Shown one piece after another: positions 6,965 to 53,938 of a DNA stretch of 64,000 bases. This DNA comes from Escherichia phage Esco_phi_B-01: the sequence record OP292222.1; one strand, written 5' to 3'. Under the pieces are notes generated by a model. That model was not told the DNA's origin. It did no database searches and saw nothing but the letters and a program-made list of their open reading frames with translations. A program made the translations under genes and the position numbers. How positions within the stretch are numbered: the first letter of the stretch is position 1; each line of letters begins with the position of its first letter.

Positions 6965-8247
6965 TAATCAGCCTCGTAAATAATTGCTGGAAGTTTAACA
7001 CCAAGCAGATAAGACATATTACTCTGTCCGGCCATTAAATCCATATTGGTGGCATCGATAACACGAGCTTCTTTATCGTCTTTAGCTACGGTGTACGGGT
7101 TAGCGGACAGTGCATAACGAACCATCAGAGAAATAGAAGGCTGTAATGAATCCGGGTCGACAATAACCTTATAAGCACCAACGTGTTCTGGGTCGTCTAA
7201 ATCCAGGCCTTCTGTATACGGGGCATAGAAAATAGAACCGACAACTTCATTACCGCCATAGTTCTCTTTAACACCTACGATAACATAATCCAATGGGCTG
7301 TTAACGTCACAGAACAATGGTAATCCATTCAACAAATAACCATAGGCAGTTTCTGGGAGCCAATTATTATCTTCAGGTCTATGTTTTAACCAGCCAGAAC
7401 CTGCAAGCATTGCAGCCACACGACTTGAAGCCACAACAAACGTACCGGAATAAGAAGTAGTTTTCTGGATTTCAGAATTCATCTCACAAACAATTTCATA
7501 AAGTTTACGTGCAGATTCTGGAGCACTATCATAAGTCAAATCGATGATGCCATTATCAGATACACCCGTAACTTTATAGCGTTTAGATACGGTTATCAGA
7601 GATTGCAGAACGTCTTTATTAATTTCATCTGCCATTACTGTAGCCAGGAGGTCTTCTAAGAATGCAGGGGCGTCGAAGCCATTTGATTCCATATCCTGGG
7701 CCAATTCTACAGTCAAAGCAGTCTTCAATTTACGGGTCTTAACAGGAGCATTCCATTTATTAACCTGGAATACAGCATCAGAGATTTCTACATTACTCGC
7801 TTCGAATTTAGTGGTATGGGCTGCATCAGGAACCAGACGACATGTTAATGACACCAAACCTTCTTGAAGGGCATCAGCCAATCCTGTAGCGCTAGTGGAT
7901 GCGAGTGGGCTTGCTTGAAGAGCCTTATAAACCACATTCTGATACTTAAAGTAGTCACCCTTGGCAATCGCCTGGGCTTTATCTGTGAGTTCTGGGATAG
8001 TTTCACGGTCTTTAGAACCAACTTCACCACCATAAACAGCACCAGTTTGGAAACTGAATTCATTATCAGGGGTAAGATATTTGACACCGTACAATGCAGC
8101 AATAGGCTGACTAGTACGTTGTTCAGCGATGATATCGCGATAAATTAGTTTAGTGGTAGCACGGGTCAAAGCAACAAGATTAGGGCGACCCAATGAGTTG
8201 CTGGTAGTAGTTGTTGACTCGCGCAGTAATTCGTTAATCTTTGCCAT
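6964..8247 (-). CDS. 24: Head vertex protein gp24
   Basis: 427 aa; MAKINELLRESTTT... matches recalled T4 gp24; stop overlaps start of paralog at 6964. Confidence 0.9.
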   Translation of the reverse strand: MAKINELLRESTTTTSNSLGRPNLVALTRATTKLIYRDIIAEQRTSQPIAALYGVKYLTPDNEFSFQTGAVYGGEVGSKDRETIPELTDKAQAIAKGDYFKYQNVVYKALQASPLASTSATGLADALQEGLVSLTCRLVPDAAHTTKFEASNVEISDAVFQVNKWNAPVKTRKLKTALTVELAQDMESNGFDAPAFLEDLLATVMADEINKDVLQSLITVSKRYKVTGVSDNGIIDLTYDSAPESARKLYEIVCEMNSEIQKTTSYSGTFVVASSRVAAMLAGSGWLKHRPEDNNWLPETAYGYLLNGLPLFCDVNSPLDYVIVGVKENYGGNEVVGSIFYAPYTEGLDLDDPEHVGAYKVIVDPDSLQPSISLMVRYALSANPYTVAKDDKEARVIDATNMDLMAGQSNMSYLLGVKLPAIIYEAD

Positions 8248-8275
8248 TGCGCTTTCCTTATTGAGGGTATATGTT

Positions 8276-8283
8276 TATTTATA
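8276..8283 (-). promoter_or_regulatory. Late promoter TATAAATA (minus) for gene 24
   Basis: Reverse complement of tatttata, about 30 nt upstream of gp24 start. Confidence 0.45.
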
Positions 8284-8288
8284 AAGTT

Positions 8289-8340
8289 GTTTACAGCAAG
8301 GTTCTCACGTGTTACTATAGTCCTATCAAAACACGAGGAG
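8289..8340 (+). promoter_or_regulatory. Early promoter with stem-loop (PeSL-like) driving the 88-aa ORF
   Basis: GTTTAC, 18-bp spacer, TACTAT, then conserved AGTCCTATCAAAAC. Confidence 0.5.
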
Positions 8341-8347
8341 ATTAAAA

Positions 8348-44148: not shown

Positions 44149-44222
44149 GGCCCTGTAGCTGGACGGTCAAGCGAGCGACTCATAATCGCTGGATGGTGGT
44201 TCGATTCCACCCAGGGCCACCA
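44149..44222 (+). tRNA. tRNA with CAU anticodon (Met or lysidine-modified Ile)
   Basis: Hand-folded cloverleaf: acceptor ggccctg/cagggcc, anticodon stem agcga/tcgct, loop cuCAUaa, T-arm ggtgg-ttcgatt-ccacc, encoded CCA. Confidence 0.8.
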
Positions 44223-44226
44223 ATTT

Positions 44227-44301
44227 GGATGTGTAGCTCAGTGGTAGAGCAGTTGACTGTTAATCAATTGGTCCATGGTTCGAATCCATGCATGTCCGCC
44301 A
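44227..44301 (+). tRNA. tRNA-Asn (GUU)
   Basis: D-arm gctc-agtggta-gagc, anticodon loop cuGUUaa, T-arm catgg-ttcgaat-ccatg, 7-bp acceptor with two G-U pairs, encoded CCA. Confidence 0.8.
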
Positions 44302-44305
44302 AATA

Positions 44306-44381
44306 CGAGGCATAGCTCAGAAGGAAGAGCAACGGTCTTCTAAACCGTAGGTCGTAGGTTCGATCCCTACTGTCTCGACCA
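44306..44381 (+). tRNA. tRNA-Arg (UCU)
   Basis: Anticodon stem acggt/accgt, loop cuUCUaa, T-arm gtagg-ttcgatc-cctac, encoded CCA. Confidence 0.85.
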
Positions 44382-47964: not shown

Positions 47965-48304
47965 TCTTTCATCGCATGTTTATCAATTGGCTGAATATGA
48001 TATTGCTATTTCCTTATTCACGGGAATTGTCACAGGTATGCTCGGCGGTCTGGTTGGTCTGGTAATGACCACAGTTATGGCTGCAATCGAAGGAGTCATG
48101 CCTATTGAGATGGGTTTCTATATGATAATTGCTCCGGCTGTCGTGGCTTATTTTATCCCTCTCGTGTATGATATTTGCCATACAAATGCTTTGAATGCTC
48201 CCATCCGTAAGAGATATGCTTTAGAGATGGCTAATTATAATGAGTATGTAAAACAAACCAAACGTAATGACCTTGAAACCTTTATTAAGGAATGTAAATC
48301 ATGA
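47951..48304 (+). CDS. Small membrane protein
   Basis: 117 aa from ATG 47951; two hydrophobic helices. Confidence 0.45.
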   Translation: MERPSLSSHVYQLAEYDIAISLFTGIVTGMLGGLVGLVMTTVMAAIEGVMPIEMGFYMIIAPAVVAYFIPLVYDICHTNALNAPIRKRYALEMANYNEYVKQTKRNDLETFIKECKS

Positions 48305-48591
48305 ATAAAATTGAAATTGAAATCCCTGAATACAACGACGAGAAATCTGCAGAAAAAGCTATCTATGCTCTTCTGAATAAAGTAGATACCATCGAACATG
48401 AATGTGAAGCTATTGCCGATAAGTACGGTATTCAATTCGGAACAGGTGATTATGGCTCAGGACGTACATACTACCCTGTTGGTTATGAATGCTCCCAGTG
48501 GTTTAAAGATGAAATTGAAAACAATGGTGGTGAAGTTGAAAATGGCGTCGTTACAGTTGGTGCCTGGATTTCCTCTTCAGCAATGTGCTAA
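48301..48591 (+). CDS. Small protein, member 1 of tandem paralog array (C-terminal WISSSAMC)
   Basis: 96 aa; conserved C-terminal tail and gene junction shared with next three ORFs. Confidence 0.55.
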   Translation: MNKIEIEIPEYNDEKSAEKAIYALLNKVDTIEHECEAIADKYGIQFGTGDYGSGRTYYPVGYECSQWFKDEIENNGGEVENGVVTVGAWISSSAMC

Positions 48592-48600
48592 GGAAACGCT

Positions 48601-48882
48601 ATGATGAATGATAACCATAACCACCCAGAGCTTCTGGCCGCAGTAAAAGAAATTCATGAAGCTATTCGTCGTGCCGAGGAAATTGCAGACAAATATGAGA
48701 CTCATTTTAATATATACCCTGCTCGCGGTATGGGCGGTGACTATTATTCTCCTGGTGCCTTGAAAGCTGACCTTGCCCATTGGGAAGAAGATGGTCATCC
48801 TGAATGGGCTATTGTTAATACTCATGACTATACAACTGACCTGGAAAATGGTGGTTGGGTGTCCTCTTCTTCTGAATGTTAA
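48601..48882 (+). CDS. Small protein, member 2 of tandem paralog array (C-terminal WVSSSSEC)
   Basis: 93 aa; same junction TAAGGAAA-N-ATG. Confidence 0.55.
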   Translation: MMNDNHNHPELLAAVKEIHEAIRRAEEIADKYETHFNIYPARGMGGDYYSPGALKADLAHWEEDGHPEWAIVNTHDYTTDLENGGWVSSSSEC

Positions 48883-48891
48883 GGAAATATT

Positions 48892-49089
48892 ATGTCTCGT
48901 GAATTAGATTGTGCAATCCGAACTGCCGCGGCGGCTATTGAAAACGTTATCCAGATTTGCAAAGAAGAACGTGAAGAAGCTGATATCTATATCGATGGTG
49001 TTCGTGACTTAGAACGACATATCACGCTTTATAACGGTTGTATTACTATTAGTGGTACCTCTTGGGTATCATCCTCTTACGAATGCTAA
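48892..49089 (+). CDS. Small protein, member 3 of tandem paralog array (C-terminal WVSSSYEC)
   Basis: 65 aa. Confidence 0.55.
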   Translation: MSRELDCAIRTAAAAIENVIQICKEEREEADIYIDGVRDLERHITLYNGCITISGTSWVSSSYEC

Positions 49090-49099
49090 GGAATAAAAA

Positions 49100-49324
49100 A
49101 TGACTGATATTGATGAATTAGAAAAAGCTGCTCTTGAACTGGCTGCATTGTATAAGAAAGTAAAAGATATGGCTTCTGCTCAAAGTTTTGGTGTTGAGTT
49201 AGACGATTACGATGGTGAAGTTCGTCTTGAAGATTGGCTGAATAGCTCTTGTTACGGCGAAGAAGCTGGCCGAACCTTCGTTGCTCGTCCCGATGGTAAA
49301 ATCTGGTACCCGAGCTCATGCTAA
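49100..49324 (+). CDS. Small protein, member 4 of tandem paralog array (C-terminal WYPSSC)
   Basis: 74 aa. Confidence 0.5.
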   Translation: MTDIDELEKAALELAALYKKVKDMASAQSFGVELDDYDGEVRLEDWLNSSCYGEEAGRTFVARPDGKIWYPSSC

Positions 49325-49545
49325 AATTAAAGAAAAGATACATTCGTAAAATAAACGGTCTTCGTGATTATGCCAAAGGTTGGCCGTTAAGTATTATTAT
49401 GGCTGATAGACACCCACGTTATAATACTGAGATGACCTATTACAAAAAGTATGATTCATATTGTCGGTCTAAAGCAGGTCGTTTAGATGGTTCTTATGAA
49501 GAATACTTTGGTAAAAAACCTACTCGTATTTCGTTAGGAAAATAA
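49318..49545 (+). CDS. Hypothetical basic protein
   Basis: 75 aa; no clear RBS. Confidence 0.35.
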   Translation: MLKLKKRYIRKINGLRDYAKGWPLSIIMADRHPRYNTEMTYYKKYDSYCRSKAGRLDGSYEEYFGKKPTRISLGK

Positions 49546-49948: not shown

Positions 49949-50188
49949 ATGTGGTATTACTCTCCGCTGTCTGATAAGTCTGATGAGCCGGTACGAATTA
50001 GTCGTGCTAAGTTTAAAAAGATTTATGGCTTTGCCTATAAGAAGTCTGATTATGGTGTTCGTTTTGAAGATGCCCACTGTATCAATGACCCTTATGCGGA
50101 AGAAATCTCTAATGAGATAATTCCTATCGTTAAGAATAATTCTGATGATATGTGGGAATTGCATAACGATTACGTTGCTGAAATTTAA
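49949..50188 (+). CDS. Hypothetical protein
   Basis: 79 aa; GAGGAGA RBS. Confidence 0.5.
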   Translation: MWYYSPLSDKSDEPVRISRAKFKKIYGFAYKKSDYGVRFEDAHCINDPYAEEISNEIIPIVKNNSDDMWELHNDYVAEI

Positions 50189-50207
50189 GTTTACTGAGGA
50201 AAATATT

Positions 50208-51167
50208 ATGATGCTAGTTATTGGTTCTCGTGCACTGCACCACGCCGGTCTGATTGAAAGTAAGTATATCGAAAATTCTGATTGGGATTTTATTGCCGAC
50301 CAAGGCTCATGGAATCACTTTAAAGCCCGGATGTTCGGCGCTCATGTGCACGTAGACAACCCAGACGTCCAGGCTTTTAAATGCATGCACAACGGTAAAG
50401 AAACCTATTTTGAAGCTTATATCGTCCGCGCCTTGACTAACGTACGTGAAATTACCGGCGAGCTTCAGGACGAAGATTTAACCTCAAGTTATCGACTCCT
50501 GAAATACGCCGAAAATCATATTAAAAAGGATCGTCTTACAGGTTTCTATTGGGCAACGCCTGATATCTGTCTGGCTATCAAAATGAGCCATCGTTATTTG
50601 AAGAACCACCCTTTCTTTTTGAAGACGATGTCCCACATCAAATATCTTCGTAATAAAGGTGTAACCTTGAATGAAGAGCTCCAAGAAATCATGCTGCAAC
50701 GCCAGAAAGAAACGTTGAGCTATTCTCATCCTAAATTGGATGTAAACAAATCATCATTCTTTAATGATACCATTTATACATTAGACCATGACTCCATCCA
50801 CGAAGCTGTGGCATTGGCTGGACGCCCTGCATATACCTTTTATATGAAAGATGGTTCTGAAGTCATGACCTCACGTGAGAAGTTTGAAGCTTTGCCTGAA
50901 GCTATTAAACTGGCTGGCGTATATGAAGAAACTTGTGTGTTGGCCCTAGAACGTTCACAGGTTCCTAACGACTTTAATATTTCACCATCATTAAGTTTCT
51001 ATATGGCTCTTGAGAAAGTGTGTACCTCAATCACTTCAGGCTGGTTCCGCACTTATGCCTGGGAAAACTACCAAGCTGTAGTGAATATGTATAAGACGCT
51101 AGGTGAAAATGACTACATCAAGCGGTTCCAAGATAACCAACATTTAATTCGTCCTTTCACAAAATAA
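50208..51167 (+). CDS. Putative nucleotidyltransferase-fold protein
   Basis: 319 aa from ATG 50208 (GAGGAAA RBS); N-terminal IGSRALHHAGL...SDWDF resembles GS...DxD motif, with atypical spacing. Confidence 0.5.
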   Translation: MMLVIGSRALHHAGLIESKYIENSDWDFIADQGSWNHFKARMFGAHVHVDNPDVQAFKCMHNGKETYFEAYIVRALTNVREITGELQDEDLTSSYRLLKYAENHIKKDRLTGFYWATPDICLAIKMSHRYLKNHPFFLKTMSHIKYLRNKGVTLNEELQEIMLQRQKETLSYSHPKLDVNKSSFFNDTIYTLDHDSIHEAVALAGRPAYTFYMKDGSEVMTSREKFEALPEAIKLAGVYEETCVLALERSQVPNDFNISPSLSFYMALEKVCTSITSGWFRTYAWENYQAVVNMYKTLGENDYIKRFQDNQHLIRPFTK

Positions 51168-51179
51168 TTGCATAAAACA

Positions 51180-51235
51180 GTATACAAGGTCTATAGGTGT
51201 GATACTATAGACCTATCAAAACAACAGAGTGAAAT
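51180..51235 (+). promoter_or_regulatory. PeSL-type early promoter (degenerate -35 GTATAC)
   Basis: GTATAC, 17 bp, TACTAT, AGACCTATCAAAAC; palindrome ggtctatag/ctatagacc. Confidence 0.45.
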
Positions 51236-51458: not shown

Positions 51459-51472
51459 TTGAGGAAAATATT

Positions 51473-52159
51473 ATGAACAGCCCGAAAACTTTTAATTCTC
51501 AAGCTCGTGCAGTAGGTAGTTTTGCCGGTAAAATTTCTAACGATAAAATCAAAAACGAAACTATGTTCTTCAACAGCTCGTTGGCTTTCGCTTTTGATAA
51601 TGGTGGCCCTATTACTCGCAGCTTCATCATGAACCTGCCGGATGATTGGAACACTGACCAGGTTGTATTTGATTCTCGAGTTCATATGCTTATGCCTGGT
51701 TGGTATCCTGCTATCCCAGGTTATCATCATGATGATGTACCACGTCCGGATATTCCGGTTGGTCAACACTTTATTACTGCAGGGCAACCTGATTATGATA
51801 ATCCTCGATACCATTCTGAACATATTCTTGGTCTTGTTAACGCTGATGTGTGTCCTACTTATTTTGCAACCGGAACTGCACAATTTAGCCAGATTCCTGA
51901 TGGCGAACTTATCTATCGCCGGTGGCATAAAGAAGTTCTGGAAAAAATCGAGTCCAATGAATTAACCAAGTGGGATGCTCCTGACCGCACATTGCTCCAG
52001 TTTGATTGGCAGACATGGCATACAGGTTCTCGTGCAGTAAGTAATGGCTGGCGCTGGTTTGGTCGTGTGTCTCGTAATACCGACCGTGTTAAAAAGATTA
52101 CAAATGAAATCCGCGTTAATGCTCAAGTATATCTGGAATTCCCTATGGAGGGCTGGTAA
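51473..52159 (+). CDS. Hypothetical protein
   Basis: 228 aa; GAGGAAA RBS; His/Asp-rich central region. Confidence 0.5.
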   Translation: MNSPKTFNSQARAVGSFAGKISNDKIKNETMFFNSSLAFAFDNGGPITRSFIMNLPDDWNTDQVVFDSRVHMLMPGWYPAIPGYHHDDVPRPDIPVGQHFITAGQPDYDNPRYHSEHILGLVNADVCPTYFATGTAQFSQIPDGELIYRRWHKEVLEKIESNELTKWDAPDRTLLQFDWQTWHTGSRAVSNGWRWFGRVSRNTDRVKKITNEIRVNAQVYLEFPMEGW

Positions 52160-52746: not shown

Positions 52747-52979
52747 GTATTGCTATTTACATTAAATCCGAATCGTGTGATTCATATCTGTATTCCTACG
52801 ACACAGGAACATCAGAAGAGAAAATCAAAGAAGATTTAGAAAGCGACTTGGATATGTTCCGACCTATTTCTGATTATATGGTCCAAATATCTGATAGTGA
52901 AAGTCCGTCAACAGAAACGTGTGTTGAAATTATTATACGAGATATTTTTGAACAATCATGGAAACGAGACGATGAGTAA
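52743..52979 (+). CDS. Small acidic hypothetical protein
   Basis: 78 aa. Confidence 0.4.
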   Translation: MSIAIYIKSESCDSYLYSYDTGTSEEKIKEDLESDLDMFRPISDYMVQISDSESPSTETCVEIIIRDIFEQSWKRDDE

Positions 52980-53418
52980 AGTTAAAGAATTATCTGCTGG
53001 TATTTTGTTCATGACCGCCGATAAAGAACTAGTTATGGGTCGTGTAACAGGCTCTCGTAATCCAGAGAACATGCGTCATAAATGGGACATTCCTAAAGGT
53101 CATGTCGAACCGGGTGAAGAGCCTATTCAAGCAGCAATGCGTGAAACCGAAGAAGAGATTGGATTCACAGCATACGATCCTGCGTTCCTGAAAGACCTAG
53201 GTGAGTTCAAATATTCAAGCAATAAGAATCTACATCTGTTCTTATATACTGTGCCTGTCGAACACGAGCAGTTCAAGAATTGCAAATGTACAGCTTACCA
53301 TACGTTCCCTGATGGTCGTACGATTCCTGAATTCGATGCTTTTGCCTTAATTAAACGTCCACAATGGAAATACGTCATGGGCCCGTCGATGTTTAAGGTT
53401 TTAGATTCACTCTTTTGA
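52972..53418 (+). CDS. nudE: Nudix hydrolase
   Basis: 148 aa from ATG 52972; Nudix box [23 protein letters not shown]; adjacent to e as T4 nudE. Confidence 0.8.
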
Positions 53419-53426
53419 TATAAATA
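53419..53426 (+). promoter_or_regulatory. Late promoter TATAAATA for lysozyme gene e
   Basis: Exact TATAAATA; predicted start falls inside the SD-sequestering hairpin. Confidence 0.5.
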
Positions 53427-53448
53427 CCTCCTATAATCAGGAGGTATT
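53422..53448 (+). promoter_or_regulatory. Hairpin sequestering the e ribosome-binding site in upstream-initiated transcripts
   Basis: Inverted repeat aaatacctcc/ggaggtattt with loop tataatca; the 3' arm contains AGGAGG immediately before ATG 53450. Confidence 0.6.
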
Positions 53449-53449
53449 T

Positions 53450-53938
53450 ATGGATATTTTTGATATGTTACGTCAAGACGAAGGTCTTGATTTAAATCTT
53501 TATAAAGACACCGAAGGTTATTGGACTATTGGTATAGGCCAGTTAGTTACCAAGAACCCATCTAAAGATGTTGCTCGCGCTGAACTTGATAAGCTTATGG
53601 GGCGAGTTTGTAATGGTCGTATTACTATGGCTGAAGCTGAACAGCTCTTTAACCGTTCAGTGGAAAATGCTCGTAGAGCTATAATGCGTAATCCTAAATT
53701 GAAACCGGTTTATGATGTGCTGGACGAAGTTCGTCGTTGCGCATTGATTAATATGGTCTTCCAAATGGGCGAAGCTGGTGTAGCAGGATTTACCAACTCT
53801 CTGCGTATGCTCCAACAGAAACGTTGGGATGATGCAGCAGTTAACCTGGCACAGTCTCGTTGGTACAAGCAAACCCCGAATCGTGCCAAGCGTGTTATCG
53901 CCACCTTTAAAACCGGTACTTGGGCTGCTTATAGATAA
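53450..53938 (+). CDS. e: Lysozyme (endolysin)
   Basis: 162 aa; [13 protein letters not shown]...[13 protein letters not shown] matches recalled T4 lysozyme. Confidence 0.95.

Follow-up and report, generated by a model that had tools for sequence, protein, structure and literature searches.

Escherichia phage Esco_phi_B-01, a JS98-like T4-type coliphage of the genus Dhakavirus, encodes a 319-amino-acid protein that we predict to be a catalytic nucleotidyltransferase of the DNA polymerase beta (pol-beta) superfamily, with intact active-site residues and with AbiEii and MenT as its nearest kin. The gene lies in a 64,000-nucleotide stretch of the sequence record OP292222.1, hereafter called the window. 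Based on sequence comparison across phages, we predict that the enzyme and a set of small acidic proteins encoded upstream of it constitute a two-component module. We tentatively favour the reading, held at somewhat less than even confidence, that the enzyme would transfer a nucleoside monophosphate onto a serine of these small partners.

A first-pass annotation of the window had likened the N-terminus of the protein (MMLVIGSRALHHAGLIESKYIENSDWDF) to the GS...DxD motif of minimal nucleotidyltransferases and had remarked that the spacing between GS and DxD was longer than typical. The motif is indeed there: in an alignment of 57 sequences whose mean column identity is 43%, G6, S7, D25, D27 and E69 do not vary, and the first four of these are still invariant after adding the most distant clade, which is around 30% identical (49 sequences). 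At the position of E69, 34 of 35 lineage representatives have either E or D. The spacer from S7 to D25 is likewise long, at 17 residues. Pfam assigns residues 2-101 to DUF7277 with an E-value of 3.5e-27.

All structures of the enzyme described here are predictions. The AlphaFold2 model (predicted local distance difference test, pLDDT, 92.8; predicted template-modelling score, pTM, 0.87) has I5-G6-S7 between strand 2-5 and helix 6-12, as expected of the hG[GS] signature of the pol-beta superfamily, while D25-W-D27-F opens strand 26-31 and E69 sits in strand 64-73, corresponding to the [DE]h[DE]h signature and the third carboxylate. The model is also similar in three dimensions to solved pol-beta-like nucleotidyltransferases, with comparison values of 10.2 for MenT1 (145 residues aligned), 8.7 for ANT(2'')-Ia, 8.5 for TglT/MenT3, 7.8 for MenT4, 7.6 for each of TM1012, 5uvd and 4ok0 (a putative H. 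pylori nucleotidyltransferase), 7.2 for LnuA and 6.7 for the Megavirus poly(A) synthase. The nucleotidyltransferase fold proposed by the first-pass annotation is thus supported by a confident model, by catalytic residues placed where the fold requires them and by weak AbiEii matches of relatives.

These matches emerged when 49 diverse family members were scanned one by one against Pfam. After DUF7277 and DUF7275, the domain that makes up the C-terminal part of the protein, the commonest match was PF08843 (AbiEii), found weakly in 5 of the 49. The best of them (P0237, E-value 9.8e-5, 22.8 bits against a cut-off of 22.5, in the motif I/II region) is the only member reaching the gathering score. 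Residues 54-136 of one relative, at the start of DUF7275, align to positions 134-218 of the AbiEii profile (the motif III/IV part) with an E-value of only 0.023. The window protein itself has no match to PF08843 in Pfam at E <= 10, neither NCBIfam nor PADLOC matches the enzyme, and no significant PDB sequence was retrieved with either the protein or the family profile. More specific suggestions of the first-pass annotation are not supported: no CD-NTase, SMODS or Mab-21 profile or fold match was obtained, and Pfam returned no match at E <= 10 either to these or to the minimal NTP_transf_2 family. The long spacing is expected, because it is a published hallmark of AbiEii/DUF1814 enzymes, whose motif is hG[GS]x15DhD as compared to x9-13 in pol beta (PMC3985639). 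A spacer of comparable length is also present in the verified sequence of ANT(2'')-Ia. A few depositors already name family members 'putative nucleotidyltransferase'. A 75%-identical homologue from Klebsiella phage vB_KpnM-VAC36 (P0006) is recorded as 'prohead assembly scaffold protein', a name to which the fold and the family analysis give no support.

To describe the surroundings of the enzyme, we collected 95 loci with 8-kb flanks and clustered all their open reading frames (ORFs). The flanking genes differ completely between phage families, and small proteins ending in W-x-x-S-S-x-x-C-stop are the only gene family accompanying the enzyme across lineages. The loci contain 251 ORFs with this ending, of which 247 are on the same strand as the enzyme, 245 are upstream and 219 are within 2 kb; control end-motifs gave 0-2 matches among 6,395 ORFs. 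With enzyme lineages defined below 65% identity, such a type-1 partner is adjacent in 30 of the 35 lineages, 5.8 kb away in one and absent from four. We also scanned IMG/VR from the partner outward, using its YGMGG core alone, and found the enzyme in 41 of 44 loci, 39 of these with the enzyme 0.1-1.9 kb downstream; two of the three loci lacking it are at contig ends. The syntenic 20 kb of T4 has neither the enzyme nor a partner gene. The first-pass annotation had missed the partner genes, and they change the likely mode of action of the enzyme.

Type-1 partners have a median length of 84 amino acids, an isoelectric point (pI) of 4.4 and a net charge of -9, and occur in 1-6 diverged copies per locus. 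Their layout comprises an N-terminal helix EAExxAD, a YGMGGxY core and a tail with the consensus GGW[VIL]SSSxxC-COOH, in which the motif is preceded by a Gly-Gly linker. Of 214 partners, 29 contain the motif a second time, at an internal position. These proteins (phrog_899 and phrog_4882) have no Pfam family and no literature that we could find; the partner profile retrieved no relative from the PDB, only designed helical proteins. Within the window, 4 of 214 ORFs carry the ending, all at 48301-49324, where they form a tandem array (Table 1) with an AAGGA ribosome-binding site on each gene. JS98 has a fifth partner gene (L001 4489-4698; 69 amino acids, ending ...GFWFSSSMSC) that is missing from the window (49089-49100), and the number of partner copies therefore varies between phages with 98%-identical enzymes. 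A 75-amino-acid ORF at 49318-49545 (+), which is orf125 in the JS98 annotation, begins before partner gene 4 has ended, lacks a recognisable ribosome-binding site and may not be a real gene. We did not count as evidence for a partner-enzyme fusion the 377-amino-acid metagenomic protein P0465, whose junction (...PAC-W-QKGKH-V-LLIGS) looks like read-through. Its partner-like N-terminus carries WDNSGC and WNSSGGPAC motifs, and from its sequence it looks like a TGA read as Trp followed by a GTG start read as Val, either as a gene-calling artefact or in a TGA-recoding phage.

The four lineages without a type-1 partner (Streptomyces, Gordonia and two Vibrio phages) fall into a clade of shorter enzymes of around 250 amino acids, here called the short clade as opposed to the long clade of the window protein. 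Members of the short clade have a different small acidic partner, which is present at 81 of 85 loci and represented in 25 of the 26 lineages. This second partner is around 113 amino acids long with a pI of 4.5, occurs in 1-4 copies per locus and is always on the same strand as the enzyme, in most cases directly downstream of it; the gap has a median of 10 nt. Its consensus is ...GGEGxGEY...F..G..FK..G.Y.S[YW].G..WD....EV.P.....T.Y., and the Ser in G-x-Y-x-S-[YW] is the sole invariant residue besides the start Met and one Val. It has no Pfam family, and we detected no relation between the two partner families. Within the long clade, only L074 (lineage 5; enzyme at 7416-8342) has no partner next to the enzyme; the one ORF with the motif there, 139 amino acids long and ending ...AWCSSSMEC, is on the opposite strand, 5.8 kb downstream.

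For the C-terminal helical domain, of around 200 amino acids, no solved relative was found. Both clades have in common a core consisting of K125, H128, K139, E168, H194-D195-x-x-H198, E240-E241, E248-R249, K270 and S274, which is invariant in alignment A4 except for E168, K270 and S274 (conserved or nearly so). A different set of residues tracks the partner: R129, T140, R165, Y172, H174, Y212, C272, S277 and R281 are invariant in all 31 long-clade lineages, and the short clade has other residues at every one of these positions. While the partner-tracking residues switch, the C-terminal core and the catalytic residues stay fixed. We rejected two other assignments for this domain. A HEPN-like fold (RNase L KEN match with an E-value of 0.28; R129-x4-H134) was discarded as the motif is not conserved in the family, and a zinc or disulfide site formed by C243 and C272 was discarded as C243 varies (C/Y/M/A) even in partner-bearing enzymes and only C272 tracks the partner.

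The family is large, with 2,121 clusters at 90% identity in the long clade and 743 in the short clade, and an exhaustive hidden Markov model search yielded 1,587 clusters at 50% identity. It is present in 733 of 50,697 phage genome records, and its carriers include Straboviridae (T4-like), Stephanstirmvirinae, rV5-like phages, Otagovirus, jumbo phages and actinophages of Gordonia and Streptomyces. Among 185,579 cellular species genomes there were five matches, all on contigs of metagenome-assembled genomes. The enzyme family is essentially phage-only.

How might enzyme and partners work together? In the scheme that we favour, G6-S7, D25, D27 and E69 would bind the nucleoside triphosphate and Mg2+, and a pocket of the helical domain, made of the partner-tracking residues that are invariant only in partner-bearing enzymes, would hold the flexible Gly-Gly-Trp-x-Ser-Ser-x-x-Cys tail of the partner. 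The nucleoside monophosphate would be moved to the hydroxyl of the partner's invariant serine, and the nucleotidylylated small acidic proteins would be the actual effectors during infection. The nucleotide used and the role of the modified partners are, like the partner as acceptor, parts of the scheme that we infer. We prefer the partners as substrates because an invariant Ser, flanked by aromatic residues, is found in two unrelated partner families and because the partners are multiple and diverged, with a Gly-Gly linker and internal motif repeats. Further reasons are that the enzyme has a near-neutral pI (6.5, with a family median of 6.0) and that there is precedent for pol-beta nucleotidyltransferases modifying partner proteins, namely MntA-HepT, GlnE, GlnD and CitX/MdcG. 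Moreover, a protein Ser or Thr hydroxyl can enter the active site of MenT enzymes, as T39 of MenT1 and S78 of MenT3 are auto-phosphorylated (PMC11375011).

Three considerations weigh against the partners as substrates. The lineages are related phages with common ancestry, so that the linkage counts overstate independence. The characterised close structural relatives MenT1, MenT3 and MenT4 all act on tRNA 3' ends, and their small neighbours are antitoxins, not substrates. Finally, the core conserved in the two clades reaches well beyond the metal triad and could reflect a common acceptor other than the partner.

The MenT precedent leads to the main alternative, which we hold somewhat less likely than the favoured scheme and in which enzyme and partners would form a toxin-antitoxin-type pair of the MenT/AbiEii kind, the enzyme adding nucleotides to the 3' CCA end of host or phage tRNA or to other RNA and the small partners neutralising or timing its activity. 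As regulators, the partners would resemble the 68-amino-acid MenA1 acting on MenT1 and, with Ser7 being invariant, might induce its modification in the active site. The weak AbiEii matches of relatives fit such a pair, as does the conserved N-terminal helix EAExxAD of type-1 partners; MenA antitoxins are likewise small, adjacent and from unrelated families (PMC10435456, PMC11375011), which matches the two unrelated partner families. The carrier phages are also all large and have tRNA genes, the window having three of them 6 kb upstream of the enzyme. Nevertheless, 1-6 diverged tandem copies are unusual for antitoxins, and the strongest conservation in the partners is the Ser motif on a tail or loop and not the helix. 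The enzyme is not basic, as would be expected of an RNA binder, its carriers are virulent phages that need translation, and the window protein lacks a PF08843 match of its own.

RNA is also the substrate in an improbable second alternative, an RNA-repair nucleotidyltransferase that would restore lost nucleotides at damaged tRNA or RNA ends before religation, like RlaP or CCA-adding enzymes, with the partners as accessory proteins. Genes for RNA ligase, polynucleotide kinase, LigT 2H phosphoesterase, YqeY and metallophosphatase lie 1-5 kb from the enzyme in several unrelated lineages, and the RNA-repair clusters of jumbo phages include pol-beta nucleotidyltransferases (PMC7824862; PMC12776372). 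However, Pfam gives no match to RlaP (PF10127) or to PolyA_pol/CCA enzymes (PF01743), and the repair genes are not consistently adjacent: only the small partners are consistently linked. This strict linkage would be left unexplained by an enzyme acting on a small molecule or nucleotide, whether by ANT/Lnu-like O-adenylylation of a metabolite or antibiotic or by synthesis or capping of a signalling nucleotide. Fold similarity to ANT and Lnu is all that speaks for this activity, hhalign detects no sequence-level link to ANT(2''), and we consider it very unlikely.

A more elaborate role for the partner serine can be imagined, to which we assign only the slimmest chance. The module would be a phage peptide-maturation system in which the tail Ser is O-nucleotidylylated, the His/Asp/Glu/Arg core of DUF7275 eliminates the nucleoside monophosphate to leave dehydroalanine, and addition of the C-terminal Cys closes a lanthionine-like S-x-x-C ring; the partner arrays would then be precursors. 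The spacing between Ser(-3) and the C-terminal Cys is that of the aminovinyl-cysteine (AviCys) rings in known lanthipeptides. Class V lanthipeptide pathways use APH-like kinases, whose place would be taken here by an ANT-like transferase.

Among known systems, MenT1-MenA1, MenT3 and MenT4 of Mycobacterium tuberculosis and AbiEii-AbiEi come closest to the predicted module. They have in common with the phage enzyme the succession of hG[GS], a long spacer (x15 in AbiEii, x17 in the enzyme) and DhD, as well as an adjacent small partner gene, for which the families differ between clades. The invariant K125 that follows this core, in L-A-I-K-M, is a candidate for the Lys of motif III with its hydrophobic flanks. 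Other features are less easily equated. The Arg of motif II (R63 of AbiEii, four before D67) corresponds to I21 in the window protein, although many other members have the Arg, and the short clade retains it almost invariantly as R18. For motif IV (+DxxD), K139-T-M-x-[DH]143 and H194-D195-x-x-H198 are candidates. Furthermore, the C-terminal domain of the phage enzyme is far larger, its partners are multi-copy with an invariant Ser motif unlike those of AbiEii/MenT, and it is carried by virulent phages whereas AbiEii and MenT are carried by cells.

The mechanistic model for the partner as acceptor is MntA-HepT, in which a minimal nucleotidyltransferase polyadenylylates a Tyr of the adjacent HEPN toxin. 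The acceptor there is also the protein of a neighbouring gene, but in the phage module a Ser of the small acidic partners would take the place of the toxin Tyr. The enzyme has no NTP_transf_2 (PF01909) match and no HEPN neighbour, its neighbours being devoid of Pfam domains, and Rx4-6H (R129-x4-H134) is not family-conserved. A small acidic acceptor is found with the CitX/MdcG holo-acyl-carrier-protein synthases, which are assigned to the nucleotidyltransferase fold and place a nucleotide-derived group onto a Ser of a small (around 100 amino acids) acidic protein of the same cluster; Pfam does not match the enzyme to them, and donor substrate and biological context differ. ANT(2'')-Ia (AadB) and LnuA are much smaller (around 160-180 amino acids), have small-molecule substrates and lack partner proteins, and hhalign of the family profile against ANT(2'')-Ia shows no sequence similarity. 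RlaP is also a pol-beta nucleotidyltransferase of large phages, sometimes in the same regions as RNA ligase and polynucleotide kinase, yet the enzyme lacks a PF10127 match and RNA ligase is not consistently linked to it. We found no published description of the enzyme-plus-partner module: within a limited coverage of the literature, DUF7275, DUF7277, ORF134c, YGMGG and phage AMPylation or anti-defence nucleotidyltransferases gave nothing relevant.

AbiE/MenT-type nucleotidyltransferases are among the commonest bacterial anti-phage toxins. Here a large predicted branch of this toxin fold is carried by virulent phages, and every enzyme is tied to a small acidic protein family of its own. Should the partners be substrates, the module would represent a new system of protein nucleotidylylation, and small phage ORFs in the hundreds that lack both a Pfam family and an assigned function would become functionally testable. 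Should they be regulators, phages would have recruited a tRNA-modifying module resembling toxin-antitoxin pairs in order to take over the host or counter its defences. In both cases a testable hypothesis is gained for two Pfam DUFs and for no fewer than two orphan families of small proteins (the first being phrog_899 and phrog_4882).

The coordinates of the module in the window are given in Table 1.

Table 1. Features of the nucleotidyltransferase gene and its partner genes in the window.
Feature	Position	Strand	Details
Type-1 partner gene 1	48301..48591	+	96 aa (amino acids), ends ...GAWISSSAMC-stop; phrog_899; AAGGA ribosome-binding site
Type-1 partner gene 2	48601..48882	+	93 aa, ends ...GGWVSSSSEC-stop; phrog_899; TAAGGAA ribosome-binding site overlaps previous stop
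Type-1 partner gene 3	48892..49089	+	65 aa, ends ...SWVSSSYEC-stop; phrog_4882
Type-1 partner gene 4	49100..49324	+	74 aa, internal DWLNSSC, ends ...IWYPSSC-stop; phrog_899
Shine-Dalgarno sequence GAGGA of nucleotidyltransferase gene	50196..50200	+	7 nt 5' of ATG at 50208
Nucleotidyltransferase gene (predicted)	50208..51167	+	319 aa + stop; ORF; JS98 orf122 / RB69 ORF134c homologue; phrog_2141
N-terminal alpha/beta catalytic domain (predicted)	50208..50522	+	aa 1-105; G6-S7, D25-W-D27, E69
C-terminal all-helical domain, DUF7275	50565..51122	+	aa 120-305; Pfam E 2.8e-78

The enzyme ORF is nested in a longer frame of 340 amino acids that opens at 50145. Judged from the sequence, the ORF is a real gene and 50208 its start, since that codon is preceded by the GAGGA, a start at 50145 would overlap the preceding gene and the homologues all open with M(M/L)L(V/I)IGS. 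With JS98 orf122, whose annotation notes a similarity to RB69 ORF134c, the protein has 98.4% identity, and it matches phrog_2141 with an E-value of 1.7e-149 in PHROGs, where the function is given as unknown. The gene is flanked by a tRNA cluster on one side and by nudE/e (52969-53938) and ipIII on the other, a location that agrees with the variable ('hyperplastic') region named by the first-pass annotation. The cluster consists of three tandem tRNA genes, Met-CAT, Asn-GTT and Arg-TCT, at 44149-44381 (+) and corresponds to the tRNA region of T4.

Beyond the partners, the neighbours of the enzyme vary. Genes for NAMPT, RNA ligase, polynucleotide kinase (Pnk), metallophosphatase, Macro, DprA-like and HisRS-like proteins are each found, as raw counts, in only 3-6 of the 35 lineages. 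For example, repair-type genes (RNA ligase, LigT-type 2H phosphoesterase, YqeY, kinase/Pnk and metallophosphatase) are close to the enzyme in several unrelated large phages, namely at L140 (478-2672), L012 (1-2804 and 6706-7449) and L005 (285-1157), again as raw occurrences. Vibrio and Aeromonas phages (L014 and L015) have NAMPT and other genes for the salvage of nicotinamide adenine dinucleotide in the vicinity of the enzyme. A short HisRS-like gene of around 180-190 amino acids is 2-4 kb from the enzyme in two unrelated lineages, one per clade: L142 (8806-9342), where it is identified by Pfam tRNA-synt_His, and L002 (1-203; phage anhysbys), where only the depositor label 'histidyl tRNA synthetase', marked hypothetical, identifies it.

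Finally, we looked at signals around the genes. No terminator-like site was found between the partner genes and the enzyme gene, which fits their co-transcription without proving it, and a promoter scan was at chance level (16 sites, 14.0 expected). Twenty nucleotides past the stop codon of the enzyme is a 10-bp perfect hairpin at 51187-51214 (+), GGUCUAUAGG...CUAUAGACC, with an energy of -15.4 kcal/mol and a z of -2.66 compared to shuffles. Lacking a U-run, it does not qualify as a classical terminator and may serve in RNA processing or stability. Over 16 nt, TGAGGAAAATATTATG, the initiation region of the enzyme gene (50194-50210) is identical to that (51459-51475) of a 228-amino-acid ORF at 51473-52159, which is RB69 ORF132c-like and belongs to phrog_1843, where its function is given as unknown.
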